From: a virus
Lineage: Duplodnaviria > Heunggongvirae > Uroviricota > Caudoviricetes
Virus record (IMG/VR): IMGVR_UViG_3300027836_000006
DNA: 64,000 nucleotides
Strand: one strand, 5' to 3'
The notes under the pieces were generated by a model. The model searched no databases. It was not told the DNA's origin and saw only the letters and a program-made list of their open reading frames with translations. Made by a program: the position numbers and the translations under genes. Positions 3,754 to 47,998 of this stretch are shown here, piece after piece (the stretch's first letter is position 1; the number at the start of each line of letters is the position of its first letter).

Positions 3754-4827
3754 ATGTCGCTACGAATTAGACGCGGAACAGAAGCCCAACGAACAGGCGT
3801 AACCTTTGAACCTGGTGAATTAGTATACACTACTGACACAAAACAACTGTGGGTTGGAGACGGAGTCACATCAGGCGGAAGCCCTGCTGTTGGCAGTAAT
3901 ATTACTGGCTACGGACTAACATTTAACGCCAGTTCTAAAAGAATTGAAGTAGCTGGCCTAACTGCTGATGATATATCCAACGGGATTAACAATAAGTTTT
4001 TCAGTACAGATTTAGCCCAGGATGCGACAGCTGCATTGTTTGCGGCAGGTTCACATACTAATATTACTTTTCAATATGATGACGCATTAAATAAAATTAA
4101 TGCTACTGTAACTTTAGACGGCATTGGTCTTACTGATATTGTAAACGATACATCTCCAAGTCTTGGCGGCAATTTAGATATTAATTCATTCGATGTTACA
4201 GGAACAGGTAACATCAGTATTACAGGCGGAGTTACCGCTACGGCTGGATTCAAAGGCGACCTACTTGCTAATGACAACACTATAATTTTTGAGGCTAGTA
4301 ATGGACGTATTAGCGCAAACATCCAAGACGCAAACGGAAATATTCTATTTGATAAAGATGAGCAACGTATTACATTGTATAACGTAACATCTGCGTTTGG
4401 ACGTTTCTATGGTAATCAAGCTGGCGACCACACATCATGGTTAGAATTTTATTCATCTAACGGCACGTTTGCTTCTCCTTCAGCTGTTAATCCAGGCGAC
4501 AAACTAAGTGGTATGATTTTAAATTCCTGGAATGGCACAACGTACGACAAGTCTGTTGTTATTGGTGGACTAGTAGACGGCGCTGTCATTAACAACCAAA
4601 TACCTGGCCTATTTGCTGTTCAAAATACCAACTCAACTGGCAACGGCTTTGTAACATTAACATTTAATAGTAAAGGTGTACTAAGTGTTCCTGCTCTTCA
4701 AACAGGTGTATATGTAACTACACCAGCAGACACCCGCCCAACACCTGCCAAAGGCATGATTATTTTCAACGACACTTCTGGTGTTTTTGAAGGCTATAAC
4801 GGCACTGCCTGGGTCACATTAGGCTAA
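3754..4827 (+). CDS. tail-fibre-like structural protein
   Basis: N-terminal motif RIRRGTxAQR...GELVYTTDTKQLWVGDGVTSGG, which I recall from phage fibre proteins but cannot verify here. Beyond it the sequence is Gly/Thr/Asn-rich and beta-rich. Confidence 0.5.
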   Translation: MSLRIRRGTEAQRTGVTFEPGELVYTTDTKQLWVGDGVTSGGSPAVGSNITGYGLTFNASSKRIEVAGLTADDISNGINNKFFSTDLAQDATAALFAAGSHTNITFQYDDALNKINATVTLDGIGLTDIVNDTSPSLGGNLDINSFDVTGTGNISITGGVTATAGFKGDLLANDNTIIFEASNGRISANIQDANGNILFDKDEQRITLYNVTSAFGRFYGNQAGDHTSWLEFYSSNGTFASPSAVNPGDKLSGMILNSWNGTTYDKSVVIGGLVDGAVINNQIPGLFAVQNTNSTGNGFVTLTFNSKGVLSVPALQTGVYVTTPADTRPTPAKGMIIFNDTSGVFEGYNGTAWVTLG

Positions 4828-4885
4828 TACTATCCTTACAAAAAGATAACTACTAAGTCTATAAAGGCTTAAAGGTTATCTTTTT

Positions 4886-5641
4886 ATGAGAATTTGTATT
4901 ATTGGGCACCCCCGTTCGCGAAGTACTTACCTACTTAATGTAATTGCGGACTATTTCAAAATACCTGAAATCCCACACCACCAAATTAAAAATGTGTATA
5001 ACGTACTCCCAGTGGAGTGTTATCACTCATCGCAATGGGAACCAATTTGGGATCCTAACTTCCCTACATCTATTAAAGAAGAATTTTTAATCAAGTTCAA
5101 CGAGTTCCAGTCTAAGATAAAAAATAAAGCTAGTTTTATTATCAAAGTTCACCCATCGCAGTTAGCTTACTTTCCAGCAAGCGGTCAGCTAATAGATTTT
5201 GACTTGTTTGGTTTTCAACAATACAATCAAATTTACTTTACTGTACGTAAGAATCACATTGATGCAATTTGTAGTTACTTCATTGCTAACAAAACAGACA
5301 AGTGGCACTACGGCCGTGGCGACAAACCTATGGCTATTGAAGCGCAACCTATGTCTAATAATATTGCTGTTATGATTTATATTTGGCACGACTTGATAAG
5401 TCAAGAGCTAAAGAAGTACCTAGACAATAAAAATATAGCATGGAGTGAAATCTATTACGAAGACATGACTGATTACGTAAAAGACCATTATCCAACAGGA
5501 TTAGCTAACACTATAGAAACTGGGTACGACTATAAACAACTTATAACCAACTACGACGAGTTGACTGACACATATAATATACTTAAAGATAAAGTTACAG
5601 CATTGTTTTACGAACATAATCCGGATTTGAAGAATGTTTAA
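4886..5641 (+). CDS. sulfotransferase (PAPS-dependent, Sulfotransfer_3-like)
   Basis: N-terminal 5'-PSB loop IIGHPRSRSTYLLNVI, compared with the consensus IVGmPRSGTTLL. Confidence 0.6.
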   Translation: MRICIIGHPRSRSTYLLNVIADYFKIPEIPHHQIKNVYNVLPVECYHSSQWEPIWDPNFPTSIKEEFLIKFNEFQSKIKNKASFIIKVHPSQLAYFPASGQLIDFDLFGFQQYNQIYFTVRKNHIDAICSYFIANKTDKWHYGRGDKPMAIEAQPMSNNIAVMIYIWHDLISQELKKYLDNKNIAWSEIYYEDMTDYVKDHYPTGLANTIETGYDYKQLITNYDELTDTYNILKDKVTALFYEHNPDLKNV

Positions 5642-6731
5642 ATTTAGCGAGCTAAAACAATTACACTTAGAAATAACAAACAACTGCCAAGCCAGTTGTC
5701 CTATGTGTGCGAGGAATGTTCGCGGGGGTGTTGATAATCCGCTGTTGACTATTAACAACTGGACCTTAGATACATTTAAAATAATCGTATCTCCAGAAGT
5801 ACTATCACAAATCGATGTGTTTTATTTTTGCGGTAACTTTGGAGATCCAATACTAAACAATGAATTGATAGACATGTGCGAGTATGCTGTTAGCGTTGAT
5901 CCAACAGTTACTATTAACATACACACAAATGGCGGAGCCCGTAATGTCGATTGGTGGATAAAGTTAGCAAAGACATTGCCAGTAAATCATCGTGTAGTGT
6001 TTGCCATTGACGGCTTAGAAGATACTCATTCTATCTATCGCATCGGTACATCATTTAATAAAGTAATAGAAAATGCTCGAGCATTTATCAATGCCGGTGG
6101 TAAAGCAGAGTGGGCATTTATAAGATTTAAGCACAACGAACATCAAGTAAATGATGTAAGACAGATGGCAACTGAGCTAGGGTTTGAAAATTTTACTATG
6201 AAAGATAGCTCACGCTTCTTTGATAGCGAGAAATATGCTGTATTAAACAAACAAGGATCTGTAATTTATAATTTAGAGCCTTCGACGTACAGCGAAATTA
6301 AATTTATTAGTACAGACATTATTAAACAACATAAGAAATTAGTAGCCGAAAGTGAAATACAATGTCAGGCATTGGATTTAAAAGAAGTATATATAGATGC
6401 GTTTGGTAGGATTTTTCCGTGTTGTTGGATTGCTAGTACACCATATACTTCCTTCGACGAGGACATTAGATTTGCTCCAGTGCGTTATCAAATGCTAGAC
6501 GAATACAATGAACTGATTAACGCATTAGGCGGGATAGATAAATTAGATGCTACTCAGCATACAATTAAAGATATTGTTGATTCGCCGGAGTATCAATCAG
6601 TGTGGTACAAGTTTTGGGCTGAGAAGAAATTAACTGTATGTGCTAGAGCTTGTGGTGTTCTTAAGACGCCAGTATTTTCAAAACCTTCAGAGCAATATAC
6701 TAGTAAAGAAATACTTCACCAGCGTCCGTAA
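5634..6731 (+). CDS. radical SAM enzyme, family A (paralog of 19678..20757)
   Basis: CxxxCxxC motif in ITNNCQASCPMC. FCGNFGDP is GGEP-like. Shared block NARAFI(N/A)AGG...HNEHQV. C-terminal CC...C cluster. Confidence 0.7.
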   Translation: MFKFSELKQLHLEITNNCQASCPMCARNVRGGVDNPLLTINNWTLDTFKIIVSPEVLSQIDVFYFCGNFGDPILNNELIDMCEYAVSVDPTVTINIHTNGGARNVDWWIKLAKTLPVNHRVVFAIDGLEDTHSIYRIGTSFNKVIENARAFINAGGKAEWAFIRFKHNEHQVNDVRQMATELGFENFTMKDSSRFFDSEKYAVLNKQGSVIYNLEPSTYSEIKFISTDIIKQHKKLVAESEIQCQALDLKEVYIDAFGRIFPCCWIASTPYTSFDEDIRFAPVRYQMLDEYNELINALGGIDKLDATQHTIKDIVDSPEYQSVWYKFWAEKKLTVCARACGVLKTPVFSKPSEQYTSKEILHQRP

Positions 6732-7270
6732 GTTTCAAGTTGATTCAAAAATACAACTGGGTTTAATTTCCAAAACGTTTGTTCGTGCCCTCTATATATC
6801 ATTGCACAATGTTTGGATAAAGCACCAGTCTCAACAAGCGCAGGACAATAAATCTTATGTACCAGGCGTTGACTAGCAACTGGGGATTCATTGGTTGAAA
6901 TGTACATGTTGCTATCAACACCACACCACTCAATACATGCTGGTATAAAAAATTGTGCTGTTGCGTTTTGGTGTTGTTGTATTGTTCTTCCTCTAGCACG
7001 TAATGTTGATATAGGAAGTCTATCAGTGAACACACACGTTCTCGCACATATACGATAAGCATTCTCACCCAACTCAGGTAGGCTATGCGCTGCAACACTA
7101 CCTACAGCTTCATCATTATAATATAAAATCCATACTTGGCTTTTAGTTTCTTTGCGGAAACTATCTACTAGAATCTTTTGATTAGCGTTGTTTTCAAAGC
7201 CACGGCTTGCCGCACTATCGTAAAAGGATGTTAAGTCTAGCTCTTGTGTCCACGGAACTAGTTTATACAT
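6716..7270 (-). CDS. hypothetical protein (184 aa)
   Basis: ORF convergent with 5634..6731, overlapping it by 16 nt. It is the first gene of a minus-strand run of four. Confidence 0.45.
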   Translation of the reverse strand: MYKLVPWTQELDLTSFYDSAASRGFENNANQKILVDSFRKETKSQVWILYYNDEAVGSVAAHSLPELGENAYRICARTCVFTDRLPISTLRARGRTIQQHQNATAQFFIPACIEWCGVDSNMYISTNESPVASQRLVHKIYCPALVETGALSKHCAMIYRGHEQTFWKLNPVVFLNQLETYGRW

Positions 7271-8037
7271 TATATTCCAATCTTTTTCTTAAACTCTTCA
7301 GTGAAGTGACCTTCTATATTAAAAGTTAATGTCGCATACGGCAACGTCTTAGTTAGATTACCGTGCCAGTCGTGATAGTTAAATGTAGCAATATGCCCTT
7401 CTACAGGAATACACTGTACTACGTTACCAGCGTCGTCAAAATCGTATAGATTCATTTCACGCTCTTTATCAAATCTAAACCATAGCACATCATGAGGTTT
7501 TTCAAGTTGTTCAAAAGTTAACACACCTTCCTCGAATGGATAGTAGTTAAAATCTCTATGGCAAGCCTGAGGCATGTAATGGTCTATATAAAAGAAGGAT
7601 ACTTGTTTTATTTCTTTAAACGGCCAAGTTTTAACCCATTGTTTAATATCTTCGTCAACCCAATCTTTAAACTGGCCAGTACCGTAGTTAAACAAGTGCA
7701 TTGTTCTGTAAGGACTGAATACTTTATGTTGTAATTGTAGATATCGCATGAGTCCATATCTATCGTTATTATCTTCAAAATACGCAATGCGTTCTTTTTC
7801 TTTATCTGTGCCGTTTTGTTTTAAATCGTGTAATACATAATATGCTAACTTAGCCATTTTAAATGCGGGCTTGTTTAGATCTTCAAAGTTAATACCGGCA
7901 GCAGTATTCGATTCGCTATGTTGCGGCCAGTTTTTAGCAAAGAAGAAATAAAAGTCATCCTTCTTATCCAGTAACTCATTAATGTTAAGATACTGTTCTA
8001 AATTCATAAACGGTTTGCCGTTAGCTAATTTTAGCAT
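7270..8037 (-). CDS. hypothetical protein with a cupin-like HxD...H signature (paralog of 18164..18943)
   Basis: CHRD...H and HDWH elements. The C-terminus GHFTEEFKKKIGI matches GKFTEEFRQRVGI of the 18164 gene. Confidence 0.4.
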   Translation of the reverse strand: MLKLANGKPFMNLEQYLNINELLDKKDDFYFFFAKNWPQHSESNTAAGINFEDLNKPAFKMAKLAYYVLHDLKQNGTDKEKERIAYFEDNNDRYGLMRYLQLQHKVFSPYRTMHLFNYGTGQFKDWVDEDIKQWVKTWPFKEIKQVSFFYIDHYMPQACHRDFNYYPFEEGVLTFEQLEKPHDVLWFRFDKEREMNLYDFDDAGNVVQCIPVEGHIATFNYHDWHGNLTKTLPYATLTFNIEGHFTEEFKKKIGI

Positions 8038-8938
8038 TGTTGCTCTCTAAATATCTTAGTAAAGGTGATAACCCAAGATTCTTAACACCAGATGTTGCCA
8101 TGTGAATAGCATCTGTTGGACTCAGATTAAAATCTTTACAAATTTTGTTGTAATGTTGTTCGTGTGTATTCCACAAATGATCAGCTGGCACATTATCTAA
8201 GAAATAATTACCTATTGCTACACACATGGTATTTATTTGGAGGTAGTCGTTGAGTATTGTAATAGGATCTTCGTACATTACATTAGACCACCGTACTCCA
8301 ATACGATTCCATCCAGCTAGTCCGTACCCTTTACTTAGACTTGAAGAAAAACTCCATATAGCTGGATGTGTTAAATCTAAATCAATATTGCGACACGCTG
8401 TGATCCATGCTCCGTCAATATGTACTGGTATTTTTAATTCTAAGCAACGATTTAAAATTTCATTCATTTGCGGATGTACTTTACCTATCCTAGCAAACGG
8501 AACAGAAATAATTAAATGCTTACGTGGCTCTAGCGTGTCAATTGTTTTAGGAATCAACTTAGGGTTAATCAGTGTATGATATCTGTATTCATCCTGTAGT
8601 ACTTGAACATTTTGTGTAGCATGTAGTGTATCCATATAGTGGGCAACACCCAGACAAATATCAGCACGTTTAAACTTGTTGAAACCTCTAATTGAATTTA
8701 ACTTAGATTGTTCTAACCGTTGTCTAAATGTATTCTTAAACTTTTCAAATATAGGACTAGTAACTTCGTTAGTTACATCAGCCGCAGTAAATGAACTATC
8801 TAAAAAATCTAATTTAACTTTATTAGTCCTAACGTTTTCCATCAACTGCTCGTGTAGCGAATCAATAAACGGGTGGCACTTAACTGTTTGTAGATAATTG
8901 TCTGAATAGTCAGGCGCTGGTAAAAATATGTTACTCAT
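8021..8938 (-). CDS. PLP-dependent aminotransferase-fold protein (class I/II-like, short)
   Basis: SSLSKGYGLAGWNRIG matches the SxSKxxGxxGxRxG PLP-lysine motif. It is preceded by HIDGAW (DEAY-like) and ISVPFA. Confidence 0.6.
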   Translation of the reverse strand: MSNIFLPAPDYSDNYLQTVKCHPFIDSLHEQLMENVRTNKVKLDFLDSSFTAADVTNEVTSPIFEKFKNTFRQRLEQSKLNSIRGFNKFKRADICLGVAHYMDTLHATQNVQVLQDEYRYHTLINPKLIPKTIDTLEPRKHLIISVPFARIGKVHPQMNEILNRCLELKIPVHIDGAWITACRNIDLDLTHPAIWSFSSSLSKGYGLAGWNRIGVRWSNVMYEDPITILNDYLQINTMCVAIGNYFLDNVPADHLWNTHEQHYNKICKDFNLSPTDAIHMATSGVKNLGLSPLLRYLESNNAKIS

Positions 8939-9620
8939 AGTTTACCTTAAAAAACAGGCCAGCTAAGTTTTTTATATGATCAAAATGCTGATTGTCAACT
9001 GTAAAATAAATTCCAGTATCATCAAATCTAAAATTTGCTATCTGCCCTTCTTTGCTTTTATAATTTAGCCACGGACTATATATCTGGTCAAAGTTATATC
9101 TAAAAATATCAGCAGGAATGTTGTTAGGTGTAATTCTAATATTAACAGGGTTATCAATGTTACCATGCAACAACAACTGTCTTATCACTAATTGATATCG
9201 AACATGCGATCCAAAATTTATTGCTGAATGTACTCGGCCAGCATCCATGTTCCACCAAGTGTAATCTTTTTCTGTAGAGTGAAGTTTGTGTGTATCCAAA
9301 TCAACTAAAAAACAGTTGTTACCCGATAAGTTTAAGTGCCACCTATCATCTATGTCAGCATGTAGTGTATAGCAAGTTTCCTGATCTAATTTCATTAACC
9401 GTGCTTCACCTTTTTCAAACGGCAATGTATCCAATACTCTTTGCCAAACTGTATTCTTATATTCGTCTTTGATTTGCCAAGCATCGTAAAAGAAATTACC
9501 AGTTGGCTGATTTAATATTATTCTGCGCTCACCGCCTGGAAACTGCGACAAGTTCATTATTTGGGCAAATGCTTCGTCAAATAGTTCTTTCGGCAATTGA
9601 AATTGTGTCTTAGTTAACAT
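8931..9620 (-). CDS. hypothetical protein; possible cupin/2OG-oxygenase-like (HADIDD...VHSAINFG)
   Basis: 229-aa ORF. Its start codon lies inside the left arm of the 14-bp inverted repeat at 9618-9631. Confidence 0.4.
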   Translation of the reverse strand: MLTKTQFQLPKELFDEAFAQIMNLSQFPGGERRIILNQPTGNFFYDAWQIKDEYKNTVWQRVLDTLPFEKGEARLMKLDQETCYTLHADIDDRWHLNLSGNNCFLVDLDTHKLHSTEKDYTWWNMDAGRVHSAINFGSHVRYQLVIRQLLLHGNIDNPVNIRITPNNIPADIFRYNFDQIYSPWLNYKSKEGQIANFRFDDTGIYFTVDNQHFDHIKNLAGLFFKVNYE

Positions 9621-9664
9621 AGAAATATTTATGTGCTACTATAACTATGGTAAATATTTCTATG
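9618..9664. promoter_or_regulatory. perfect 14-bp inverted repeat (19-nt spacer) spanning two divergent start codons; candidate operator
   Basis: catagaaatattta (9618-9631) is the exact reverse complement of taaatatttctatg (9651-9664). The left arm contains the CAT start of the minus gene and the right arm contains the ATG at 9662. Confidence 0.5.
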
Positions 9665-10519
9665 TTAAATACTCGCATTGCCACATCGTACACTACTGAA
9701 TGGTTACAAACAGATAGACCTAGTCCGTTGGACGACAATCAAATTGAGCAGTTAATACAAGATGTATTGTGTGGGAAGCTAGATAAGGATATTACTGATA
9801 ACGTTTATACTAGTTTTAAACAAGAGACAACGAATTGGATTTTTAACTCAAAATTAAATACCTTAACAGGGTTTGATAGTTTTAATCGTGTTGATATTAT
9901 AAACGGATGTACACAGTTTATAGATAATTTGTATATGCAAGGGCCTGTACAAGTATTGCGAGGCGATTACAGATACCATGAAAGATTAGAATTAGCGTAT
10001 GTAAAAGATGTGGGCTCGCTAATTCCAGACATTCCTTTAATTATAGCAATGCCGTTCCCTAGCATTGGTGCTCCACATCAGGATATGGAGGAGATTTTAC
10101 ATGAGTGTAAAATTAAAAACATTGCAGTACATATTGACGGTGCTTGGATTAGTTGTTGCCGTGACATTACTTTTGACTTTAGCCATGTGGCTATTAGATC
10201 CGTTGGCATCAGTCTTAGCAAAGGTCTTGGTCTCGGGTGGAACAGGATAGGATTACGTTGGACCAAAGATAGCAAGGCAGATTCGATTACAATAATGAAC
10301 GATTTCAAAATGAACAATCGTGCGCTGGCAATGATTGGATTGCATTTTATTCGTAACTTGCCAACGGACTACTTGTGGTTGACACACGGCGATAGATATT
10401 ATACAATATGTAAAGACTTCGGCTTGACTCCCACTAACAGTATATATTTGGCACTACAAAATGGACAGCCTGTTGGAGTCAGTCCACTGATAAGGTATTT
10501 GGAAAATGAATCAAGTTAG
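9647..10519 (+). CDS. PLP-dependent aminotransferase-fold protein (paralog of 8021..8938); the start may instead be the ATG at 9662
   Basis: SLSKGLGLGWNRIG and HIDGAW. The ATG at 9662 mirrors the divergent gene's start within the inverted repeat. Confidence 0.6.
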   Translation: MVNISMLNTRIATSYTTEWLQTDRPSPLDDNQIEQLIQDVLCGKLDKDITDNVYTSFKQETTNWIFNSKLNTLTGFDSFNRVDIINGCTQFIDNLYMQGPVQVLRGDYRYHERLELAYVKDVGSLIPDIPLIIAMPFPSIGAPHQDMEEILHECKIKNIAVHIDGAWISCCRDITFDFSHVAIRSVGISLSKGLGLGWNRIGLRWTKDSKADSITIMNDFKMNNRALAMIGLHFIRNLPTDYLWLTHGDRYYTICKDFGLTPTNSIYLALQNGQPVGVSPLIRYLENESS

Positions 10520-11225
10520 CATACCGTTTGATAAGACGTGGACAGATGTTGCTGTAAGTCTAAGCGGTGGCGCAGATAGTGCCTTACTAGCCTACATGGT
10601 GTGCGAGCTTGCTAAAGAACATAATGTCACAGTACACATTATTAATCATGTGCGTATGTGGAAAACACGCCCGTGGCAACAACATGATGCTGATCGAGTT
10701 TACAATTGGTTATTCCAGCGTTTCTATCATACAACATTTAGACGGCATACTAACTTCATTGCCCCAGACATAGAATACGGTAATATAGGACCCAATCTAA
10801 CTGATGAGTATGGCAAGAAGGTAAGTGGTGATAATATACAACAACGTGCCTATGCTGAATTTATTTGCCATAAACATAATGTAAGTGCTTATTTTAATGC
10901 AGTAACACGTAATCCTAGGCAAGCAATGTTTAACGGTATGCTTGAACGTGATTTAGAACCAACCGAAGAAAATAAACATTTAGAATACATGATTCATATG
11001 GGTCGTGTTGCCAGTCATCCTTTTCGATTCGTAGATAAATCGTGGGTACTAGCACAATATAAAAAATTAGAAATTATGGATTTGTTTGAGCTGACAAGAA
11101 GTTGTGAAGGCGAATTCAAAGAAATTAACTACGCAACATATACACCTGGTCAATACGTACCAGTATGCGGGGAATGTTTTTGGTGTAAAGAAAGAGATTG
11201 GGCTATAGCATGTCAAGACTCGTAA
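10506..11225 (+). CDS. PP-loop ATP pyrophosphatase, QueC-like
   Basis: SLSGGADSA matches the SGGxDS PP-loop. The C-terminal Cys cluster CGECFWC resembles the QueC zinc site. 239 aa. Confidence 0.6.
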   Translation: MNQVSIPFDKTWTDVAVSLSGGADSALLAYMVCELAKEHNVTVHIINHVRMWKTRPWQQHDADRVYNWLFQRFYHTTFRRHTNFIAPDIEYGNIGPNLTDEYGKKVSGDNIQQRAYAEFICHKHNVSAYFNAVTRNPRQAMFNGMLERDLEPTEENKHLEYMIHMGRVASHPFRFVDKSWVLAQYKKLEIMDLFELTRSCEGEFKEINYATYTPGQYVPVCGECFWCKERDWAIACQDS

Positions 11226-11839
11226 CGTTTGGATGTTCTTATACCTATGGCAAGGGATTAGAAGATTGCCAGGATTGGCCATTACTACATAAAAGTATGC
11301 ACAGTTCTAAGCCAAGTCAGTTAGGTTGGCCAAATCAACTAAGTGACAAGTTAGGTGTAGAGCTAGTGAACAAGTCTTACCCAGGATCAAGTAATTTAGA
11401 AATACTGTATGAGATACTACAATTTGATTTTAAACAAGATGATATAGTAGTTATAATGTGGTCTCACTACTTACGTGATATGCTGTTCACACGATTCTTC
11501 AAATGGATATTTTTAAGACGTAGGTTAGGTGCTTGGAAGAATACAGGTGTAGCAAAGAAATGGGTGGAGCAGATGAGTGAGCGAGATTACTCTATGCGTA
11601 CATGGATTTACCTACAACACGCTAGTCTATACTTAAACAGTAAAGGTATAAAATATATACACTACCCTGCGGCACCACACGAGTTACGTGAATACGAATT
11701 TCCAAGAATCCATGTAGACAATTTACACATGGATGGTATAGAATGGATTGACAATGCGTTAGATGGTAGTCATCCTGGACCGGCAACACATGCTAAATTA
11801 ACGGATAAGATTTTTAATATTTTAAATGAATCAAAGTAA
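11210..11839 (+). CDS. hypothetical protein, possibly an SGNH/GDSL-like hydrolase fold
   Basis: N-terminal TFGCSYTYG is GDS(L)-like but with Cys in place of Asp. Start moved to the ATG at 11210; the ORF track gives 11198. Confidence 0.35.
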   Translation: MSRLVTFGCSYTYGKGLEDCQDWPLLHKSMHSSKPSQLGWPNQLSDKLGVELVNKSYPGSSNLEILYEILQFDFKQDDIVVIMWSHYLRDMLFTRFFKWIFLRRRLGAWKNTGVAKKWVEQMSERDYSMRTWIYLQHASLYLNSKGIKYIHYPAAPHELREYEFPRIHVDNLHMDGIEWIDNALDGSHPGPATHAKLTDKIFNILNESK

Positions 11840-13073
11840 AACATTTTGTATGCATCCTTTTACAGGATTAGCAACTAGAGAAGACGGAGCAATTTGTGCT
11901 TGTTGTCGTAGCCACCCTGTTGGCAATATACAGTACCAGAGCTTAGAAGAGATTTGGAATAATAGTACAATGCGCCGCATACGGCGACAAGTGTTAAATG
12001 ACGAGCGTCCTAAAGAATGCGAACCTTGCTTTAGTTTAGAAGACCAGGGTGTTGAAAGTTTGCGTATGCGACATATAGCAGGCAAAATACCAGAAGCACG
12101 TATTAACTTGTATCCTAATACTCCATTACAAGAAGTAATGCCATTTGAGATTCCTACTATGGAACTTAAACTAAACAACTTGTGTAATCTAAAATGCCGG
12201 ATGTGCCATCCAATGGATAGTACTAGCTGGAATGACTGGAGTGAAGTTAAAGACTTTTACAAAGCAGAAGGCAACATCATGTATGCTATTGTGGAAGAAC
12301 ATAACTTAGAACAGAAGCCACACCTTGATAAGTTTCAAGACAATCCTGAATGGTGGGCTAGTTTAGAAAAACTACTTCCGTACTTTAGACGTGTAGAGTT
12401 TGCTGGCGGCGAACCTCTAATGGATCCACAGCACTATCGCATACTAGATATGCTTGCTCCTTACGGTGATCAAATTGAGATTAAGTACGCAACTAACTTA
12501 ACCACATTAGGTAAGAGTAATCGTACCATTTGGGAATATTGGCCTAAGTTTAAATCAGTAGCAGTCAATGTAAGCATTGACGGCATTTGGGCAAGTTATG
12601 ATTACATACGGGGTAACGGTAGCTTTATTGAAATCGTAAACAACATTAAACAGGTACAGACTATTACAAACATTAGTCGTATTGTTGGCGCGGTAACTGT
12701 ACAAGTTAGTAATGTGCTTATACTAGACAAGATGATAGAATATTTCTTAAATGATTTAGGAATTGTATTTCATACGCATCGTGTAGAATATCCTAAAGTA
12801 TTATCAGCACAAGTATTACCTGCTGAATTAAAACTATTGGCTATACAACGATTAGAAGCAGTAAAGTCCCGTATTCCAGAATTTAAGATGGTTAAAGAAC
12901 ATCCTGAGCTATATGGTTACACACTTGGGCAGATACAGGATAACATCAACTACTTGAGGGCAAGAGATCAAAGCGACAAGTGGACAGATTGTATAGAATT
13001 TAATCGACGTTTAGATAAAACTAGAGACCAAGACTTTGTACAAGTTACACCAGAATTTAAGGATTACGTATAA
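11826..13073 (+). CDS. radical SAM enzyme, family B, with an N-terminal Cys-rich extension
   Basis: CNLKCRMC (CxxxCxxC) and FAGGEPL. The N-terminus has FCMHPF...GAICACC...CEPC. Paralogs are at 15561 and 39183. Confidence 0.7.
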   Translation: MNQSKTFCMHPFTGLATREDGAICACCRSHPVGNIQYQSLEEIWNNSTMRRIRRQVLNDERPKECEPCFSLEDQGVESLRMRHIAGKIPEARINLYPNTPLQEVMPFEIPTMELKLNNLCNLKCRMCHPMDSTSWNDWSEVKDFYKAEGNIMYAIVEEHNLEQKPHLDKFQDNPEWWASLEKLLPYFRRVEFAGGEPLMDPQHYRILDMLAPYGDQIEIKYATNLTTLGKSNRTIWEYWPKFKSVAVNVSIDGIWASYDYIRGNGSFIEIVNNIKQVQTITNISRIVGAVTVQVSNVLILDKMIEYFLNDLGIVFHTHRVEYPKVLSAQVLPAELKLLAIQRLEAVKSRIPEFKMVKEHPELYGYTLGQIQDNINYLRARDQSDKWTDCIEFNRRLDKTRDQDFVQVTPEFKDYV

Positions 13074-13690
13074 TGGCAACAATGCATCTTACTACACCTC
13101 ATGCTGAGTTAACGTTTATTCACATAACTAAAACAGGCGGTACAAGTGTAACTCACTGGTTAGACGAACTGCCTAATATTACATCTTATAAAAAGTGGAA
13201 GCATCACGAAAGTTCTGAAATGCTAGTCCAGGACAATCACGTATCTCCTTTTATTTTTACAGTAGTACGAAATCCGTGGGATAGAGTTGTCAGCGGCTAT
13301 CATTACTTAACACAACGTAAAGGAATGTATTTTCCAAAGTCGCACGATTACTTTTGGGAAACTGTTGAGAAGTTAACAGGCAATACTGATTTATCATTTG
13401 ATGACTGGGTTAAGTATCTGCCTGAATTTAAAATGCATCCTAATGACTGGTCAAGTGCTGGCACACCACAGTCTGATTACATACGTCCTGGAATTGACCA
13501 CGTAGTTAAATTTGAAAGCATTGACAGCGACTTTGTAGTTGTACAAGAGCTATGTAATGACTTTCGCCCGTTGCCAAAAACTAACGAGTCGCAACGTGAT
13601 TTACATCACGGCTATTATTCCGATGCTAATAGAATGTTAGTTGCTAAGATGTTTGAAAAAGATATCGACTTGTGGAAGTACTCATTCTAA
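13073..13690 (+). CDS. sulfotransferase (Sulfotransfer_2-like)
   Basis: HITKTGGTS compared with IPKTGGTS. RNPWDRVVSGYHY compared with RdPveRlvSay. Confidence 0.55.
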   Translation: MATMHLTTPHAELTFIHITKTGGTSVTHWLDELPNITSYKKWKHHESSEMLVQDNHVSPFIFTVVRNPWDRVVSGYHYLTQRKGMYFPKSHDYFWETVEKLTGNTDLSFDDWVKYLPEFKMHPNDWSSAGTPQSDYIRPGIDHVVKFESIDSDFVVVQELCNDFRPLPKTNESQRDLHHGYYSDANRMLVAKMFEKDIDLWKYSF

Positions 13691-14580
13691 TGGAACACGT
13701 AACTAGCCGCTGGCCACATCAAGACAGTATTAAGATCGAATGGAATCTTGGTAAGCGTTGTAATTACGACTGTAGTTACTGCCCTAGTAGCATACATGAT
13801 AACTCTAGTCCACATACTGATATAGAAATTCTCAAAGCAACTGTGGACAAACTAATGACACTGGGCAAACCTATACGTTTAAGTTTTACAGGCGGAGAAC
13901 CTACAGTACATCCTAAGTTTCCAGAACTTATTAAGTATTGTAATCATGTTGGCATTAGTTGGATCAGTGTAACAACTAATGGAACATTACCTTACGAATT
14001 TTACGCTAGTCTAAATGTAGATCAATACGTCTTTAGTCTACATTTAGAATACAATTGGCAACGTGTTTACGATACTATGAGTAAAGTTGCCGACCGTACT
14101 AATTTTAGAATCGTAGCACAGATCATGTGCCATCATGATCATATGCCTGCGGCTTATACGTTATTTGCTAGATGCTTGACTGCTCATATTCCAGCTACAT
14201 TAAGACGAATACGTTGGACAGAAGGTGATCATGATTTGTTTGACGACATGCGGTATCACCCTGACGACTTAAACTGGATTAAGAAACAAGAAGCCACTGT
14301 TGAAGGAAATTGTGTTATAGATGGCAAGCAAATTATACATGCCAATGACGTCATTAAACTACATTTAAACAAGTTTAAAGATTGGTCTTGTAATGCCGGG
14401 ATTGAAAGTCTAATGATAAATTGGGATGGCGAAGTACATCGTGCTACTTGCCGTGTTGGCGGTAGCTTAGGTAACATATACTCAGGGGCACTTAGTATTA
14501 ACGTAGACCCTGTAATCTGTGATAGGAATTATTGTACGTGTGCCGCTGACATTCCTCTCACTAAGATTAAACTTGGTTAA
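13690..14580 (+). CDS. radical SAM enzyme, family C (SPASM/twitch-like C-terminus)
   Basis: CNYDCSYC, FTGGEP, and a C-terminal W.CNAG...C...C motif. Start placed at the ATG overlapping the upstream TAA (TAATG); the ORF track gives 13672. Confidence 0.7.
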   Translation: MEHVTSRWPHQDSIKIEWNLGKRCNYDCSYCPSSIHDNSSPHTDIEILKATVDKLMTLGKPIRLSFTGGEPTVHPKFPELIKYCNHVGISWISVTTNGTLPYEFYASLNVDQYVFSLHLEYNWQRVYDTMSKVADRTNFRIVAQIMCHHDHMPAAYTLFARCLTAHIPATLRRIRWTEGDHDLFDDMRYHPDDLNWIKKQEATVEGNCVIDGKQIIHANDVIKLHLNKFKDWSCNAGIESLMINWDGEVHRATCRVGGSLGNIYSGALSINVDPVICDRNYCTCAADIPLTKIKLG

Positions 14581-15564
14581 ATGTGTCTCAGGCATACACC
14601 AGCAAGCAGTATTAGGACATTTGGTTGACTTTAATGGCGGATTAAATTCTGTTGTAAAATTAGGACTTGTTATATTAAAGTAAGTGTCTAACCCAAATAG
14701 TTTAGCATTACAGGCTCCTGTAATGTTACCAGTCCAGTTCATATAAATTCTGTCTAAGCCAATAGCACAATCCCAGTCTTTAAAACTATTCCAACCACGA
14801 TTGAAGTACGCACCTGGAGATGCTCGCATAGTTGAGCCGTCTTCTAAAGTAGCAGTACTGTCAAAGAATCTAAGCTCGTCTTTAATCAAGTGTCTATTGC
14901 GCCAGAACCATAATAGGTTAGGCAAACGTTTTAAGTCACGTTTTAAATACTTTAACTGTTCTGGTGTGTAGCGAGGCACAGATGGATCGGCAGTATTATC
15001 AATAACTTCGGCAGTCATAATAAACCATCTGTTACGACTGTGCTTTTTCATTAGCTCGATGTCGCGTATTCCTTTGTCCCAATGATTAGGATCCATCAAT
15101 ACTTTAACAGTAGTCTTTGTGCCGCGTTCGTGTAATGCGTCGGCTACTGCTATAATGTGTGTTACATCACCTTGGGCAATATGATGTGTTAAATGTGCGT
15201 TGTCAATAAGATGAGCATTCTCTTCCCACCATCGTAAGGTTCTAGATCCATTCGATATCAAAGAAAAATATACGTTATTGTCTTGTTTTATTTTGGCAAT
15301 GAATTCTGCCAAGTGCCTCCATAAAGTCGGCTCTCCGCCAGCCATAGACAAATGTACTTTGTCCTTGCCTAACTTCTCTTTGTAAAAATTAATCAAATGT
15401 CGAAAATTTCCTACTACCAAATCTAAGTCATCGGAAAATTTATGTGTTCCTGCGTTGCTACCAGGAAAACAATATTCACATTTAAAATTACAATAGTTAC
15501 TAGGATCCCAACCTATCTCTAAAACGTTGGATGATTTGTTAGATACAATCTTAACTGGTTTCAT
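14482..15564 (-). CDS. radical SAM enzyme, family C
   Basis: CNFKCEYC, MAGGEP, and a C-terminal DWDCAIG...C...CWC motif. It overlaps the convergent paralog by 99 nt. Confidence 0.7.
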   Translation of the reverse strand: MKPVKIVSNKSSNVLEIGWDPSNYCNFKCEYCFPGSNAGTHKFSDDLDLVVGNFRHLINFYKEKLGKDKVHLSMAGGEPTLWRHLAEFIAKIKQDNNVYFSLISNGSRTLRWWEENAHLIDNAHLTHHIAQGDVTHIIAVADALHERGTKTTVKVLMDPNHWDKGIRDIELMKKHSRNRWFIMTAEVIDNTADPSVPRYTPEQLKYLKRDLKRLPNLLWFWRNRHLIKDELRFFDSTATLEDGSTMRASPGAYFNRGWNSFKDWDCAIGLDRIYMNWTGNITGACNAKLFGLDTYFNITSPNFTTEFNPPLKSTKCPNTACWCMPETHLTKFNLSERNVSGTRTIIPITDYRVYVNTKCP

Positions 15565-16982
15565 AGTAAATGGGCTAGCTCAGGAAATGTTTCTTTAAAG
15601 TCGGTGCCACGTTGTTTGTCCATAGTACTAATATATTCGCCAAAATCTGGCAACAAGTTAGTATGGTCTTCAGCGTCCATCCAATCTAATATACCCTCCC
15701 AACGCTTCCAACCGTATGGGTTAGTTACCCAGAACTCCCTGTCCTGCGTATAGTTAATCCACAACCAAGATTTAAGTTCTTCAAACAATTCACGTACATG
15801 TTGCTTGTCTTCTAGGGGGAGCACACGCAAACTTAACCAGGTAGGTATCCATAACAAGTGTACACCAATTAGGCCGCCACCCATTACTTGCCCACTGGCA
15901 TTTTTGTCAAAGTTAATCTTCTTAAAGCCTTGTTCAACCTTCCATTTAATAAATTCAGGAACGTGCTTAATGTTTAATATTTGTACAGCAAACGCAATAT
16001 TTGTTTGTATGTTGTCTGGAGCAGTATCTAGTATTTGTAAATTTTTAACAATAGTTTGCCATTCGCTTGGATAGCGTATGTAATGATTACGTTTACCCAT
16101 TCCATCTAAGCTAAACCCTACTTTGACTTTTTTGAATTGCTTCCATATATCTATAATAGCATCGTTAATTAACAAACCGTTTGTGTTATATCTTAATGTG
16201 ATATTGTTTGCGTAACCACGTTTAATAATTTCTTCTAAGAACATCTTATGCTCTTTAATTAATAAAGGCTCGCCACCGGCAAAGTATAATTGCTTAATGT
16301 TAGGAATCTGGTCAAATATTTCTTCCCAGAATTTTGGATTTTCATGCCAGTAATTATTAAAGTCGCTAGCAGTCCAATCCATTTGTTTTTTAATTAAAGG
16401 ACTTTGTATCAGTGGATAAATCTTTTTATGTTCAGGCACCCACATGCTAGAATCATGCGGGCTACACATGATACATTTTAAATTACATGTATGGCCTAAT
16501 CTTAGATCAAGGTACTGTAATTTGTAAGGTACAGATCCATCTTCTTCTGTTTCGCGAATAAGCTGTTCTATATCTATCTTTTCTTCTAAATGCCAAGTGC
16601 CGGTTTCCCAAATGCGCTTACTAGCAATACCTTCTTGCTCTTCTTTAAAACATTTAGTACATGACGCAGGAACTTCACCAGCTAACATAGTCTTACGTAC
16701 ACTGCGCATATAGTCATTATTAAATGCTTCTGTAGGCAGATCGTGGGCAAAATTAGCGGGTTTGCCATCTTCCATCTTAACAAGTCCAACAGTGTAGTCT
16801 CCACTATCAGCGCCGCTGGCATTAGCTACACAGCATATACGCATATCGCCGTTGGGCCGAGTTGCTAAGTGTATCCAAGGAAGTACACAAAAACTTTTGC
16901 TACCTGAGATACTTTCAATTTGTTTTTGCCAAGTACCTATTTGTGTTTCTTCTGGTTGTAACCAAAATACCTTTTGTGTCAT
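15561..16982 (-). CDS. radical SAM enzyme, family B
   Basis: CNLKCIMC and FAGGEPLL. N-terminal FCVLPWIHL...RICC...CTKC extension. Confidence 0.7.
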   Translation of the reverse strand: MTQKVFWLQPEETQIGTWQKQIESISGSKSFCVLPWIHLATRPNGDMRICCVANASGADSGDYTVGLVKMEDGKPANFAHDLPTEAFNNDYMRSVRKTMLAGEVPASCTKCFKEEQEGIASKRIWETGTWHLEEKIDIEQLIRETEEDGSVPYKLQYLDLRLGHTCNLKCIMCSPHDSSMWVPEHKKIYPLIQSPLIKKQMDWTASDFNNYWHENPKFWEEIFDQIPNIKQLYFAGGEPLLIKEHKMFLEEIIKRGYANNITLRYNTNGLLINDAIIDIWKQFKKVKVGFSLDGMGKRNHYIRYPSEWQTIVKNLQILDTAPDNIQTNIAFAVQILNIKHVPEFIKWKVEQGFKKINFDKNASGQVMGGGLIGVHLLWIPTWLSLRVLPLEDKQHVRELFEELKSWLWINYTQDREFWVTNPYGWKRWEGILDWMDAEDHTNLLPDFGEYISTMDKQRGTDFKETFPELAHLL

Positions 16983-17623: not shown

Positions 17624-17662
17624 ATAATTAATTAGCCTTTAAACTGCACACTAAATATTTTT

Positions 17663-18178
17663 ATGACTATAAAATACTTGGGCAACTATCCAAATTGGGT
17701 GAATCCACATCATCTCAAAATCATTTTGGAAAGTGAAGGCGATAAACGTACTGCATATAAAACTGAGAAAGAGATAGAGAAACAAGAACAAGTATCTATA
17801 TGGTCGTCACTAGGGCATGAGCTTAAAGGCGCAGAATGGTTTATGTATTACTACGGGCACTTAGGTATGTCTGCTGTGACTGACTTACAAATACCAATAG
17901 ATATAGACGGGCCGTTTAACTGGTGGTACTCTAAAATAAATCCTGGATCAGTATTCCCATTACACGTAGATACGTTTGATGTAACTAGCAACAAGACACG
18001 CAGACTTTGGATCCCTATGCAAGATTATCAGCCTGGCCACATCTTTATATATGAAGGTAAAATGTTGGATGATTATCGTGCTGGAGATGTTTACGAGTTT
18101 GAAAATCCTAAGGCATGGCACGGTGCTGCCAACATTGGATTTGAACCAAAGATTAGTTTACAATTAGTAATTCGCTAA
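17663..18178 (+). CDS. hypothetical protein, cupin-like (LHVDT...WHGAAN)
   Basis: HxD...H spacing typical of a 2-His-1-carboxylate oxygenase. Confidence 0.35.
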   Translation: MTIKYLGNYPNWVNPHHLKIILESEGDKRTAYKTEKEIEKQEQVSIWSSLGHELKGAEWFMYYYGHLGMSAVTDLQIPIDIDGPFNWWYSKINPGSVFPLHVDTFDVTSNKTRRLWIPMQDYQPGHIFIYEGKMLDDYRAGDVYEFENPKAWHGAANIGFEPKISLQLVIR

Positions 18179-18943: not shown

Positions 18944-18986
18944 AATAAAGGCTAATTAAGTAATACTAGTAGTTATCAGAAATCAT

Positions 18987-21531: not shown

Positions 21532-22391
21532 TATTTCAAACCTAGTTCCTTGCGGATTTTTGTAGCAGAGATAGAGTGTGTAGCGTCATCAAATGTTTCT
21601 TGTTCGATTTTATAACCTACATCTCGACCATAGGTAATGTTTACAATGTTGGGTACAACTTGTATTTCATACTGTCCTTGGAATAGCGGATCTAAGTCAC
21701 GTTTAATATAACTCTTAACTTGATCTATAGCAAACGGGTTGCTTCCTTGCCAGCCTTGGCAATCACGTATTTGAATAACTACTTGACCTGTTTTGGCAAT
21801 AGAACGTTCAAATAATTTACGATGGCCTTCATGCCAAGGTTGCCACCTACCTAACATTTGTACCGTCTCTTTTTGCCAATCAAATGTAGGACGACGTTTA
21901 TTTTCTAAAATGTGCTGGCCCACAAACTCGACCCACTTTTCAGCATTTTGTTCGATTATCCTAAAATCATATTGCTCGGGTGGAACGAATGCTTTGTTAG
22001 TATCGTCAAAGCGGCCAGCGTCGATTGTGTCGATCCAGATAGTCCAGTCGGCTTTAAAGTTGTTACGCATTTCAACTAGCGGTGCTACAAAATCACAGAT
22101 AACAAAATCACCTGTACAGTTGATAGCAAAATCAAACATTCTGATACTTTGACGAATGCGCCCTTCACGGCTAAAATCCCAGTCGTTGAATCTTTTACGA
22201 ACATCATCGGCATTGAACCAATCCACTCCTACTTTCAACATGTCAGGGCCCGGGATGCCTTCATAATTTAACAACCTATTTGGATTTACTTTATATAAAT
22301 CCCCATTTTCTTCTATGTATTTTTTAAGTCGTTCAGCAAAATAGGTTTTGCCCGAACCAGGTAATCCCATAATTAAGATTCTTTTAGCCAT
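21531..22391 (-). CDS. PAPS-synthase-like fusion: N-terminal APS kinase-like P-loop domain plus C-terminal minimal HxxH sulfurylase/nucleotidyltransferase domain
   Basis: GLPGSGKTYFA Walker A. ADDVRKRF...DWDFSREGRIRQSIR compares with the CysC block LDGDNVRHGL...DLGFSDADRKENIRRV. C-terminal QPWHEGHRKL compares with the ATP-sulfurylase QTRNPMHRAHREL. The protein ends ...SATKIRKEL. Confidence 0.55.
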   Translation of the reverse strand: MAKRILIMGLPGSGKTYFAERLKKYIEENGDLYKVNPNRLLNYEGIPGPDMLKVGVDWFNADDVRKRFNDWDFSREGRIRQSIRMFDFAINCTGDFVICDFVAPLVEMRNNFKADWTIWIDTIDAGRFDDTNKAFVPPEQYDFRIIEQNAEKWVEFVGQHILENKRRPTFDWQKETVQMLGRWQPWHEGHRKLFERSIAKTGQVVIQIRDCQGWQGSNPFAIDQVKSYIKRDLDPLFQGQYEIQVVPNIVNITYGRDVGYKIEQETFDDATHSISATKIRKELGLK

Positions 22392-23362
22392 TTTATTTCC
22401 TTTGGTATCTTACTGTCAGCACTACTGACACATGTATTAGTTATACATTCTTGCGGGCTGTCAAATAATTTAAAGTTCGAAAGTGTACCTAATGGTTGGT
22501 CGTGACAACTATAACTACGTTTTACTTCCGTTCCTCTAATTATAACACTTTGGTATCCAGCGTTACAATTCCACCCACTAAACTTATTGAATCCAAATGC
22601 GTTAAATCGCTCGGCTTGATCAAATAAGTGTTCTGTTCCATCTGCTTCGTATAATGCTATTTGATAAAGTTCCTCACCATTAGCACGTTGCGGAAATCCT
22701 TCACGCATCTTGTGTATCATATCATCAGTATAACCCTCAACAACCGCACTCGCTGTCGGATCACTTTGAGGCTTTAAAGTAACGTTGATTCCACGGTTGT
22801 GAAAACGTTCCATGCGTTCATAGAGTTCGTAGAACTTTTCTGGCACCATAACTTGATTGATTGTAACGTGTACTAGCTCGTATTGTAATTGTAAACACTT
22901 GTCGCCGAACTCTTGTTCCTTGGCAAACTCATCGTGGAAGCTGGCCGTAATACTACGGCGTTGTAATAGTTCAGTATTCTTACACCAAGTGTTCCACCAT
23001 TTGCTTCCCGGTGACAAATTGGTAGTCATGTGTATACTTTGGTAGGTACTTTCCTTTTCGTCCAAATGTTTAACTAAGTCTGGCAATTGTTTATAAGCAG
23101 TAGGCTCACCTCCGCTGAACGACCAATGGAACTGGTTAAACCCATTAGCTCGTGCTTGACGCTTAATCTCGTCTACAGTAGATTTATACACTTCAAGCGG
23201 CTGGTGATCCAATTTGTCGCTACGGGCATATGGCCAACAATAGCTACAACTATAATTACAGAATCTACCCAAAATCCAACTGGTAGAAAATAATGGTTTG
23301 GCTAGCATTGTGCGTTGCCCAAACCGTACAATATTTTGGAAAGGAATGGTTGAAAAGCTCAT
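22373..23362 (-). CDS. radical SAM enzyme, family C
   Basis: CNYSCSYC, FSGGEP, and a C-terminal GWNCNAG...C...C motif. Confidence 0.7.
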   Translation of the reverse strand: MSFSTIPFQNIVRFGQRTMLAKPLFSTSWILGRFCNYSCSYCWPYARSDKLDHQPLEVYKSTVDEIKRQARANGFNQFHWSFSGGEPTAYKQLPDLVKHLDEKESTYQSIHMTTNLSPGSKWWNTWCKNTELLQRRSITASFHDEFAKEQEFGDKCLQLQYELVHVTINQVMVPEKFYELYERMERFHNRGINVTLKPQSDPTASAVVEGYTDDMIHKMREGFPQRANGEELYQIALYEADGTEHLFDQAERFNAFGFNKFSGWNCNAGYQSVIIRGTEVKRSYSCHDQPLGTLSNFKLFDSPQECITNTCVSSADSKIPKEIKWLKES

Positions 23363-23390
23363 TGACAGTATTTACAAATAAGTATATAAT
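23362..23390 (+). promoter_or_regulatory. consensus sigma70 promoter: TTGACA-N17-TATAAT
   Basis: TTGACA at 23362-23367, a 17-nt spacer, and TATAAT at 23385-23390. The predicted start site (~23397) coincides with the 5' end of the tRNA-like acceptor stem. Confidence 0.65.
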
Positions 23391-30054: not shown

Positions 30055-30083
30055 TTGACTGAATAACAGTTTGATTGTATAAT
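30055..30083 (+). promoter_or_regulatory. sigma70-like promoter: TTGACT-N17-TATAAT
   Basis: TTGACT at 30055-30060 and TATAAT at 30078-30083. Confidence 0.6.
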
Positions 30084-47415: not shown

Positions 47416-47440
47416 TTTTATTTACACTAAATATTAGACT

Positions 47441-47998
47441 ATGTATAATTTTATCAAATGGACCTTAAACGAAGGCAAAACAACTAAGACATTAGAACAG
47501 ACTCCGCTGCCTTATGGAAGAACCGAGCTTGGACGTAGTTTAAGTAAGCAATCTCTAGATTATCATTATGGTAAGTTATACAAGGCGTATGTAGATCGCT
47601 ATAATGCCAGTGAAGGAGATACTGACTTCAACGAGGCGGGTGCGTTTTTACATGATTTATTGTTTACGCAATACCAAGCACCTACAGGTTCTAACAAACC
47701 CTCTGGAACATCTGCTGAATTTATAACAAAACATTTTAAAGATTTTGACAAATTCAAAAAAGAATTTGAAAAAACAGCAATGGGTATACAAGGTAGTGGA
47801 TGGGTTTATCTAGCTCGAGATGGTAAAATTAAAACTATTGTAAACCACGAAATTAAAATGGATGTTGTATTAATAATCGACTGGTGGGAACACGCATGGG
47901 TCTTGGACTATCAAGCTGACAAGAAAAGTTACCTTAATAACCAGTGGAAGATTATCAACTGGAACGTTATTAGTTCTCGAATTGGTCTATCGTCTTAA
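47441..47998 (+). CDS. Fe/Mn superoxide dismutase family protein
   Basis: Hand alignment to MnSOD places PLPY near the N-terminus. LDYHYGKLYKAYV compares with EIHHTKHHQTYV. FLHD carries the second His. DWWEHAWVLDY compares with DVWEHAYYL. The four metal ligands appear conserved. Confidence 0.6.
   Translation: MYNFIKWTLNEGKTTKTLEQTPLPYGRTELGRSLSKQSLDYHYGKLYKAYVDRYNASEGDTDFNEAGAFLHDLLFTQYQAPTGSNKPSGTSAEFITKHFKDFDKFKKEFEKTAMGIQGSGWVYLARDGKIKTIVNHEIKMDVVLIIDWWEHAWVLDYQADKKSYLNNQWKIINWNVISSRIGLSS

Follow-up and report, generated by a model that had tools for sequence, protein, structure and literature searches.

Two divergent operons start inside a perfect inverted repeat

The 64,000-nucleotide stretch of the IMG/VR virus record IMGVR_UViG_3300027836_000006 (Caudoviricetes) analyzed here, which we call the window, comes from a large phage genome, probably of at least 300 kb; homologous contigs reach 340-370 kb, and the nearest cultured relatives, the PA5oct-type Pseudomonas jumbo phages, are distant (48% identity for rIIB, 33-35% for another protein). 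Our subject is a divergent junction in this window at which two operons begin on opposite strands and both first start codons lie within an inverted repeat. An original prediction, made from the sequence alone, had described two exactly complementary 14-mers (catagaaatattta at 9618-9631 and taaatatttctatg at 9651-9664) around a spacer of 19 nucleotides (nt; 9632-9650), with the CAT at 9618-9620 as the start of the minus-strand open reading frame (ORF) 8931..9620 and the ATG at 9662 as the start of a plus-strand ORF, the whole lying inside a biosynthetic island. We find the repeat and both start codons as described, and the island is confirmed, spanning 3754-23362 (~3.7-23.4 kb). The features that meet at the junction are these:

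6716..9620, minus strand: leftward operon of four overlapping ORFs (8931..9620, 8021..8938, 7270..8037 and 6716..7270)
8931..9620, minus strand: first gene of the leftward operon, 229 amino acids (aa), similar to solved 'beta-hydroxylase' chains (7v4f, E 5e-10)
9614..9631, minus strand: left arm of the repeat, putative expression unit of the minus-strand operon, reading CA-TAAATA (box at 9631..9626), TTTCT (9625..9621), ATG (9620..9618), TTA A
9651..9668, plus strand: right arm of the repeat, putative expression unit of the plus-strand operon, reading TAAATA (9651-9656), TTTCT (9657-9661), ATG (9662-9664), TTAA
9662..10519, plus strand: first gene of the rightward operon, 285 aa, from a family of 1407 metagenomic homologues of unknown function
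9662..14580, plus strand: rightward operon of six overlapping ORFs, among them a PP-loop ATPase-like gene, two radical SAM genes (one with SPASM) and a sulfotransferase gene

The plus-strand gene has a second in-frame ATG at 9647, and the original prediction had left open which of the two is conserved. It is the one at 9662: in related loci the homologues have a stop or no ATG at the position equivalent to 9647, and most of the 120 metagenomic homologues listed are called at 282-286 aa, where a start at 9662 gives 285 aa in the window and one at 9647 gives 290 aa. One pair of homologues (in loci L006 and L007) has GTG at the start position.

The repeat consists of two copies of a short unit

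The repeat is longer than first noted, being perfect over 18 base pairs (bp), from 9614-9631 (TTAACATAGAAATATTTA) to 9651-9668, and matching at 95% over 21 nt. Among 200 dinucleotide-preserving shuffles of the 64-kb window, none contained a perfect inverted repeat of at least 18 bp with a loop of at most 60 nt, and 3 contained one of at least 14 bp. Read toward its own gene, each arm has the same content on its own strand: TAAATA-TTTCT-ATG-TTAA. A search of the window for further copies of the 14-mer, which the original prediction had suggested, returned the two arms, a site at 17652 with one mismatch and a coding match at 16417 with two mismatches; this total of four matches is not above that in shuffles, and there is no genome-wide repeat family of the 14-mer. 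The informative unit is shorter: TAAATA, 4-5 nt, ATG. The spacer between the arms does contain the tataac (9640-9645) and the minus-strand tatagt that had been noted as -10-like, but they are not conserved in relatives and do not hold up as -10 boxes. An inverted duplication of the heads of paralogous genes was considered as a source of the symmetry and is ruled out, as the two flanking proteins share no similarity.

The unit recurs across related phages at a fixed distance from the start codon

We collected IMG/VR homologues of either flanking gene in 70 loci, later extended with loci from a pattern search to 111; the collection of units was anchored on TAAATA and required an ATG, so their use of AUG is not independent evidence. 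The repeat recurs in these related phages as pairs of units at divergent junctions, and almost all of the 70 loci share one junction plan, CAT-(g)AAATATTTA, about 19 nt, TAAATATTT(C)-ATG, which persists when the flanking proteins share as little as 40-50% identity and when the partner gene comes from a different family. The left-arm unit precedes homologues of the minus-strand gene in 45 loci, the right-arm unit is kept before homologues of the plus-strand gene, and a contig whose plus-strand protein is 90% identical carries an identical junction. In an alignment of ten junctions, CAT, AAATATTTAT, TAAATA and TG form the invariant positions (the TAAATA core is present in 9 of the 10 aligned relatives) and the adjacent coding sequence varies freely, the cassette being far better conserved than the genes that flank it. 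In its full form of ~44 bp, the cassette reads CAT-g-AAATATTTA / TRTGCTACTATTAnnAGG / TAAATATTTC-ATG. A scan of IMG/VR for an exact version (CATGAAATATTTA-N17-21-TAAATATTTCATG, 13+13 nt) found it in 41 contigs, twice in two of these.

The distance between box and start codon is the most regular property of the unit. Of 879 ORFs in the 70 loci, 81 have TAAATA separated from their start codon by 4 or 5 nt, and hardly any have it at adjacent distances; among the 127 unique units, 56 have a spacer of 4 nt and 57 one of 5 nt, and in the 111 loci nearly all of 192 unique units have the 4-5 nt spacing. These units precede at least 21 unrelated protein families, often singly: 126 of the 192 stand in two-unit junctions, and 66 have no detected partner arm (some of them being cut by the ends of loci). 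While the distance from each box to its own ATG is fixed, the intergenic DNA between divergent start codons ranges from 11 to 54 nt, with 38-41 nt in 36 of 46 two-unit junctions. At the short extreme (L022 3292-3308 and L023 3829-3845), the start codons are only 11 nt apart, CAT-TAAATATATTT-ATG, and the two TAAATA boxes overlap on opposite strands. The earlier proposal that the repeat is a regulatory feature of the divergent junction is supported.

The unusual length of the repeat in the window appears to be a local matter. Anchored on the boxes, the perfect repeats of most relatives reach only 6-13 bp, all of them A/U-rich, and the 18 bp of the window are the longest seen; the extra matching bases are one T before the ATG and TTA-A after it. 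They resemble a copy taken from the left arm, and probably arose that way, perhaps in a local event such as quasipalindrome correction.

The window holds four further copies of the unit, one of them with a 7-nt spacer:

17652..17665, plus strand: CAC-TAAATA-TTTTT-ATG before 17663..18178, with no partner arm
23360..23374, minus strand: TG-TAAATA-CTGTCA-ATG before the radical SAM gene 22373..23362; this copy is conserved in L101, L106, L071 and L089
24258..24270, plus strand: TAAATA-CATT-ATG before an uncalled 58-aa ORF, 24268-24444
47428..47443, plus strand: CAC-TAAATA-TTAGACT-ATG, 7-nt spacer, before the gene 47441..47998, a phage-encoded Fe/Mn superoxide dismutase (Sod_Fe_C, E 3e-24)

The 58-aa ORF has a MazE/AbrB-type match (PF04014, E 4.9e-5, 23.6 bits) just below the family cut-off of 24.7, and may encode a small DNA-binding regulator. 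In one related locus (L110, ~2208-2260), a GC-rich hairpin with a T-run (aggaccttcgggtcctattttttt) is followed directly by TAAATA-caag-ATG, an arrangement that reads as a terminator, a promoter and a leaderless ORF within ~40 nt.

The two arms of a junction vary independently

The original prediction took the symmetry to indicate a binding site for a dimeric regulator or hairpins that sequester both start codons. In an operator, a dimeric phage or host protein would bind the half-sites AAATATTTA ... TAAATATTT and control both operons; the repeat is perfect and statistically significant, most junctions keep the narrow range of distances between start codons given above, a central box is conserved between the arms, and the AbrB/MazE-fold ORF at 24268-24444 could offer a binding protein. 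Half-sites of one operator should nevertheless resemble each other, and here sharing a junction does not make two arms more similar: of 15 variable positions compared at 46 two-unit junctions, paired arms agree at 6.80 and randomly re-paired arms at 6.37 +/- 0.33, with 199 of 2000 permutations reaching the observed figure. Complementarity between the arms is therefore not selected beyond the unit they share, and in the absence of arm-arm covariation neither an operator nor a hairpin is supported. Each arm is instead an independent copy of a unit that is also found alone before other genes, as the 66 units with no detected partner illustrate; the distance from arm to arm varies where that from arm to ATG does not, the conserved center is asymmetric rather than palindromic, and no regulator gene is linked to the junction. 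We regard an operator as quite unlikely, though a regulator that binds the promoter boxes themselves is possible.

For a hairpin switch, the arms would base-pair within a transcript spanning the junction, and the resulting stem would mask a start codon. An 86-nt RNA of the region does fold to -21.9 kcal/mol (z = -4.45 against shuffles), but this stability is an automatic consequence of the repeat. Because the genes diverge, an RNA carrying both arms must start inside the opposite gene, on its antisense strand, which makes the presence of both arms on one transcript unlikely. The box-anchored repeats of most relatives are short and show no compensatory changes, and an Rfam search gave only sub-threshold matches to generic miRNA-type hairpins, which we treat as noise, with no known RNA family recognized at the junction. 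Taken as an explanation of the repeat, the hairpin is extremely improbable.

The unit as a late promoter fused to a start codon

TAAATA forms the core of the late promoter of T4-type phages, TATAAATA, which consists of an 8-bp box at -13..-6 followed by an A/T-rich segment, with no -35 element, and which is known to vary at -13/-12 in relatives of T4 such as Aeh1 (PMC2988020). For the jumbo phages CBB and GAP32, ATAAATA boxes and a gp55-like sigma have been predicted (PMC5259590), and the 'Group 2' jumbo phages reportedly encode minimal sigmas and gp33 with no RNA polymerase of their own (PMC7824862). The exact TATAAATA is present in several of the relatives collected here. Among 124 unique units, 73-75% have TTT right after the box, a share that rises to 90-98% in a 'strong' class, which has T.A..nTAGCA(C/T)A conserved directly upstream of the box; the 'weak' class has no conserved sequence upstream.

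Both the distribution of TAAATA in the window and its position before other genes are consistent with a promoter signal. It occurs 46 times on the two strands, where composition predicts about 104, and 18 of the 46 fall within the 6.8% of the sequence that is intergenic, leaving 28 in ~59.6 kb of coding sequence on both strands, a depletion that is expected if stray copies are harmful. A second arrangement, with TAAATA 17-19 nt upstream of the gene and then a Shine-Dalgarno sequence, is seen at 34870, 41891, 46338 (minus strand), 46391 and 48331, and the box thereby precedes virion genes in the window (the tail-fibre-like 41891, 48331/48660 and 46391). Between 100 and 150 kb of the PA5oct genome, TAAATA lies at most 45 nt upstream of 10 of 22 virion genes confirmed by proteomics, compared with 7 of 38 others (a hand count from annotated listings, with no significance test), and one PA5oct structural gene, EST35_0222 (144985 of the record), has the ATG-abutting form TAAATAcgtgtATG.

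What sets the junction apart is the closeness of the box to the start codon. Neither of the two first genes has a Shine-Dalgarno sequence, and there is no purine-rich site in either arm, whereas many other genes of the window carry AGGAG 4-7 nt upstream and the internal genes of both operons have ribosome sites (of the AAGG/GAGAG type in the leftward operon). Of 124 unique units, 113 have the first T of the box 10-11 nt before the ATG; in both arms of the window the distance is 11 nt. A -10-like signal ~10-12 nt before a start codon is an accepted in silico mark of leaderless genes (PMC3160421; PMC12340547).

Weighing these observations together, we think it moderately probable that the junction is a bidirectional late-promoter cassette of ~44 bp that gives leaderless mRNAs. 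The inverted repeat would then be one compact expression unit (TAAATA, a pyrimidine-rich spacer of 4-5 nt, ATG) used twice in opposite orientation, and its symmetry would follow from that double use, with no selection on symmetry itself. By the T4 rule, a box at -11..-6 places +1 on the A of the ATG, that is, at 9620 on the minus strand and at 9662 on the plus strand, where RNA polymerase with a gp55-like phage sigma would begin transcription. Each operon would then have its first gene translated from a leaderless mRNA, with ribosomes reading the 5'-terminal AUG directly, and the genes downstream of it from ordinary ribosome sites. In this way a junction of 41 nt would drive four genes leftward and six genes rightward in the biosynthetic island, probably late in infection. 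The choice of sigma factor, the assignment to late infection, the precise positions of the starts and translation from messages with no leader are all inferred.

A conserved central box and the sigma-70 alternative

Between the arms lies a box that the late-promoter model does not call for, and that overlaps a match to a host-type promoter:

9632..9640: asymmetric central box TGTGCTACT; its minus strand, AGTAGCACA, lies directly upstream of the minus-strand TAAATA
9634..9642, plus strand: TG-C-TACTAT, an extended -10-like sigma-70 match that lies within the central box and faces the plus-strand gene

In relatives the box reads TRTGCTACT or TRTGCGCACT, and the conserved center as a whole, TRTGCTACTATTAnnAGG(T) with a TRTGCGCACTTAA variant, is asymmetric and always abuts one of the arms. 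In 64 oriented cassettes, with the -11 and -13 positions not used for orienting, A is found at -11 relative to the adjacent box in 97% and T at -13 in 88%. On one strand, the central box may be an extension of the adjacent, 'strong' late box.

Alternatively, the center could be a host-type bidirectional promoter read by sigma-70 (extended -10, TRTG-n-TAnnnT), with transcription starting ~12-13 nt before each ATG and TAAATATTTC serving as a short, A/U-rich leader with no Shine-Dalgarno sequence that supports or regulates translation. In the window, the TG-C-TACTAT at 9634-9642 is accompanied by TTAACA 17 nt upstream (9614-9619), the two together scoring 9/12, and would start transcription at ~9649-9650 if used; TGnTAnnnT occurs at the same offset in 34 of the 64 cassettes, followed by a conserved GG at the would-be start, and many cassettes have an overlapping TATAAT on the other strand. 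Such pseudo-symmetric arrangements have been described for bacterial bidirectional promoters (PMC12825309; PMC10268837). Against this model, about one third of the cassettes replace the essential A of the hexamer (the TGCGCAC variants), TAnnnT is present on the other strand in only 15 of 64, and the number of sigma-70 sites in the region is not above that in shuffles. A central promoter also leaves unexplained the single units that have no central box, the junctions of 11 nt and 25 nt, and the invariant TAAATA 4-5 nt from the ATG across 21 families, and 12-nt leaders lacking a Shine-Dalgarno sequence would be odd where other genes carry AGGAG. We judge this model unlikely, while regarding it as the main rival of the late-promoter reading or as its complement, since the two are compatible: early and late promoters could be stacked at the junction.

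Several points weigh against the late-promoter reading itself. The arms of the window match the T4 octamer at only 7 of 8 positions (CATAAATA) and 6 of 8 positions (GGTAAATA), and the conserved asymmetric box beside one arm (GCA(C/T)A) is foreign to T4 late promoters. A 4-nt spacer, as many relatives have, would by the strict T4 rule shift +1 to the T of the ATG, which requires the start site to be flexible by 1 nt. Half of the cassettes can be read at the asymmetric box as an extended -10 sigma-70 promoter, which would instead give leaders of 12-13 nt, and the preference for 38-41 nt between start codons may reflect a spacing constraint or common descent. T4 late promoters are read by gp55 with gp33 and the gp45 clamp, and no gp55-, gp33- or gp45-like gene is found among ~60 scanned ORFs of the window, a partial genome. 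Start sites and timing, finally, rest on inference from the arrangement of the signals.

Gene modules are exchanged around the cassette

The cassette joins many different genes. Across 72 two-unit junctions, 17 protein families are combined into 21 distinct pairs, with eight different partner families for the hydroxylase-like family alone. This variety, the exact 13+13-nt cassette in its 41 contigs (including the two that hold it twice) and the conservation of the cassette far above that of the flanking genes are what would be expected of a recombination joint, in which the cassette is kept as a homology patch for swapping gene modules and its role in expression is secondary. Portable promoters predict shuffling at promoters equally well, however, and a joint leaves unexplained both the fixed distance from box to ATG and the units that stand singly; as the primary function of the cassette, recombination is highly improbable.

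A known parallel is the PeSL cassettes of T4-type phages, short conserved regulatory cassettes that border shuffled ORFs within variable regions (PMC2839356; PMC4122927). Cassettes of the type in the window are likewise found at the borders of shuffled ORFs. Unlike them, a PeSL is unidirectional and combines a terminator stem-loop with an early sigma-70 promoter, whereas the window cassette is bidirectional and has late-type boxes fused to start codons. There is no terminator-like site at 9300-10000, and the sole sigma-70-like match there is not above chance; lacking the composite of terminator stem-loop and early promoter, the window cassette falls outside the definition of a PeSL.

A more far-reaching version of the late-promoter reading, which we offer as speculative and rather doubtful, is that the cassette is a portable bidirectional control element, conserved at the nucleotide level, of a large uncultured clade of jumbo phages. 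A dedicated phage factor would recognize its central box, or the box would add an early host-type promoter on top of the late ones, and the two arms would thereby be timed or weighted differently; the cassette would also act as a homology patch in the shuffling of radical SAM and hydroxylase modules; and the units would define a systematic leaderless late class of genes in a T4-superfamily phage.

Flanking genes and genomic context

The 1407 metagenomic proteins in the family of the plus-strand gene are all unnamed and without Pfam domains. The original prediction had called this gene aminotransferase-like, a label that finds no support in sequence searches of Pfam, NCBIfam, PHROGs and PDB; a profile of the family likewise gave no match to PDB sequences, and the AlphaFold model of the protein is unusable (predicted local distance difference test, pLDDT, 43.5). 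The motifs HIDGAW and SLSKG are invariant in the family and may resemble those of fold-type I enzymes dependent on pyridoxal phosphate. By tblastn, neither flanking protein was matched among 50,697 phage records, and megablast of 8000-12000 found no close cultured relatives.

The island around the junction, in which divergent and convergent operons alternate, contains eight radical SAM genes (three with SPASM-domain matches), one sulfotransferase gene and a PP-loop/TilS-like ATPase gene, together with genes for an APS-kinase/KTI12-like P-loop protein and the beta-hydroxylase-like protein. Two of its neighboring divergent junctions share an exact 13-mer, AAAGGCTAATTAA, at 17628-17640 (minus strand) and 18947-18959 (plus strand); a copy with one mismatch lies at 30117, and the count with mismatches is not above that in shuffles.

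Elsewhere, the window encodes rIIB, a T4 gp9/10-like baseplate protein, a prohead protease, a DNA ligase and a tail-fibre-like protein. A 3957-aa ORF (48660-60533) with no Pfam match follows a small gene (48331-48654) that has TAAATA 18 nt upstream. Among the structural genes lie a MazG-like pyrophosphatase gene (37260-37622), a QueD-like 6-pyruvoyl-tetrahydropterin synthase gene (43828-44352) and a cytidylyl/adenylyltransferase-like gene (44501-44920), which hint at functions in the modification of nucleotides or DNA bases. The sequence GACTGTATAAT occurs at 1589-1599 and 35605-35615, and with one mismatch at 30073-30083, upstream of genes with leaders and Shine-Dalgarno sequences; the cTGTATAAT that it contains also precedes two PA5oct genes, one of them the tail sheath gene, and GACTGTATAAT probably represents the host-type promoter class reported for PA5oct as TATAATA.

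Relation to known systems and significance

The element combines known kinds, the T4-type late promoter, the leaderless gene and the bidirectional promoter, and is no new kind of switch. With T4-type late promoters it shares the TAAATA core, the A/T-rich segment downstream, the use of both strands, the position before virion genes and, on its 'weak' arm, the lack of a -35 element. It differs in that the box in the window abuts the start codon, with neither a leader (as predicted) nor a Shine-Dalgarno sequence, in the conserved upstream extension of one arm, and in that units of the window would drive a biosynthetic island besides structural genes. Leaderless expression is familiar from lambda cI transcribed from PRM. 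Leaderless genes of Actinobacteria and Deinococcus-Thermus resemble the unit in having a -10-like box ~10-12 nt before the AUG and no Shine-Dalgarno sequence (PMC3160421; PMC12340547), but there the box is the host sigma-70 hexamer TAnnnT, whereas the phage box TAAATA lacks the final T and the phage unit is confined to the first genes of operons in a genome that elsewhere uses AGGAG. The pseudo-symmetric bidirectional promoters of bacteria similarly obtain divergent transcription from the symmetry of an A/T-rich element (PMC12825309; PMC10268837), and the 11-nt junction of L022 and L023 is of their overlapping type; in the window, by contrast, the boxes are separate, 24-25 bp from center to center, and the predicted starts are 42 bp apart.

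The element is notable for its compactness, its conservation at the nucleotide level across a large uncultured phage clade, and its central box. A striking perfect palindrome, as this case illustrates, is not necessarily an operator. If the predicted starts are true, whole biosynthetic operons would be expressed from 11-44 bp of control DNA by a minimal late promoter fused to the ATG, a very small bidirectional promoter part, and translation would be systematically leaderless in a T4-superfamily phage whose other genes use Shine-Dalgarno sequences. A simple rule (TAAATA, 4-5 nt, ATG) could then mark gene starts and operon borders in hundreds of contigs from uncultured jumbo phages. The reading also predicts that the radical SAM and hydroxylase island is expressed late, in which case its products may act on the virion or on other late products of infection.

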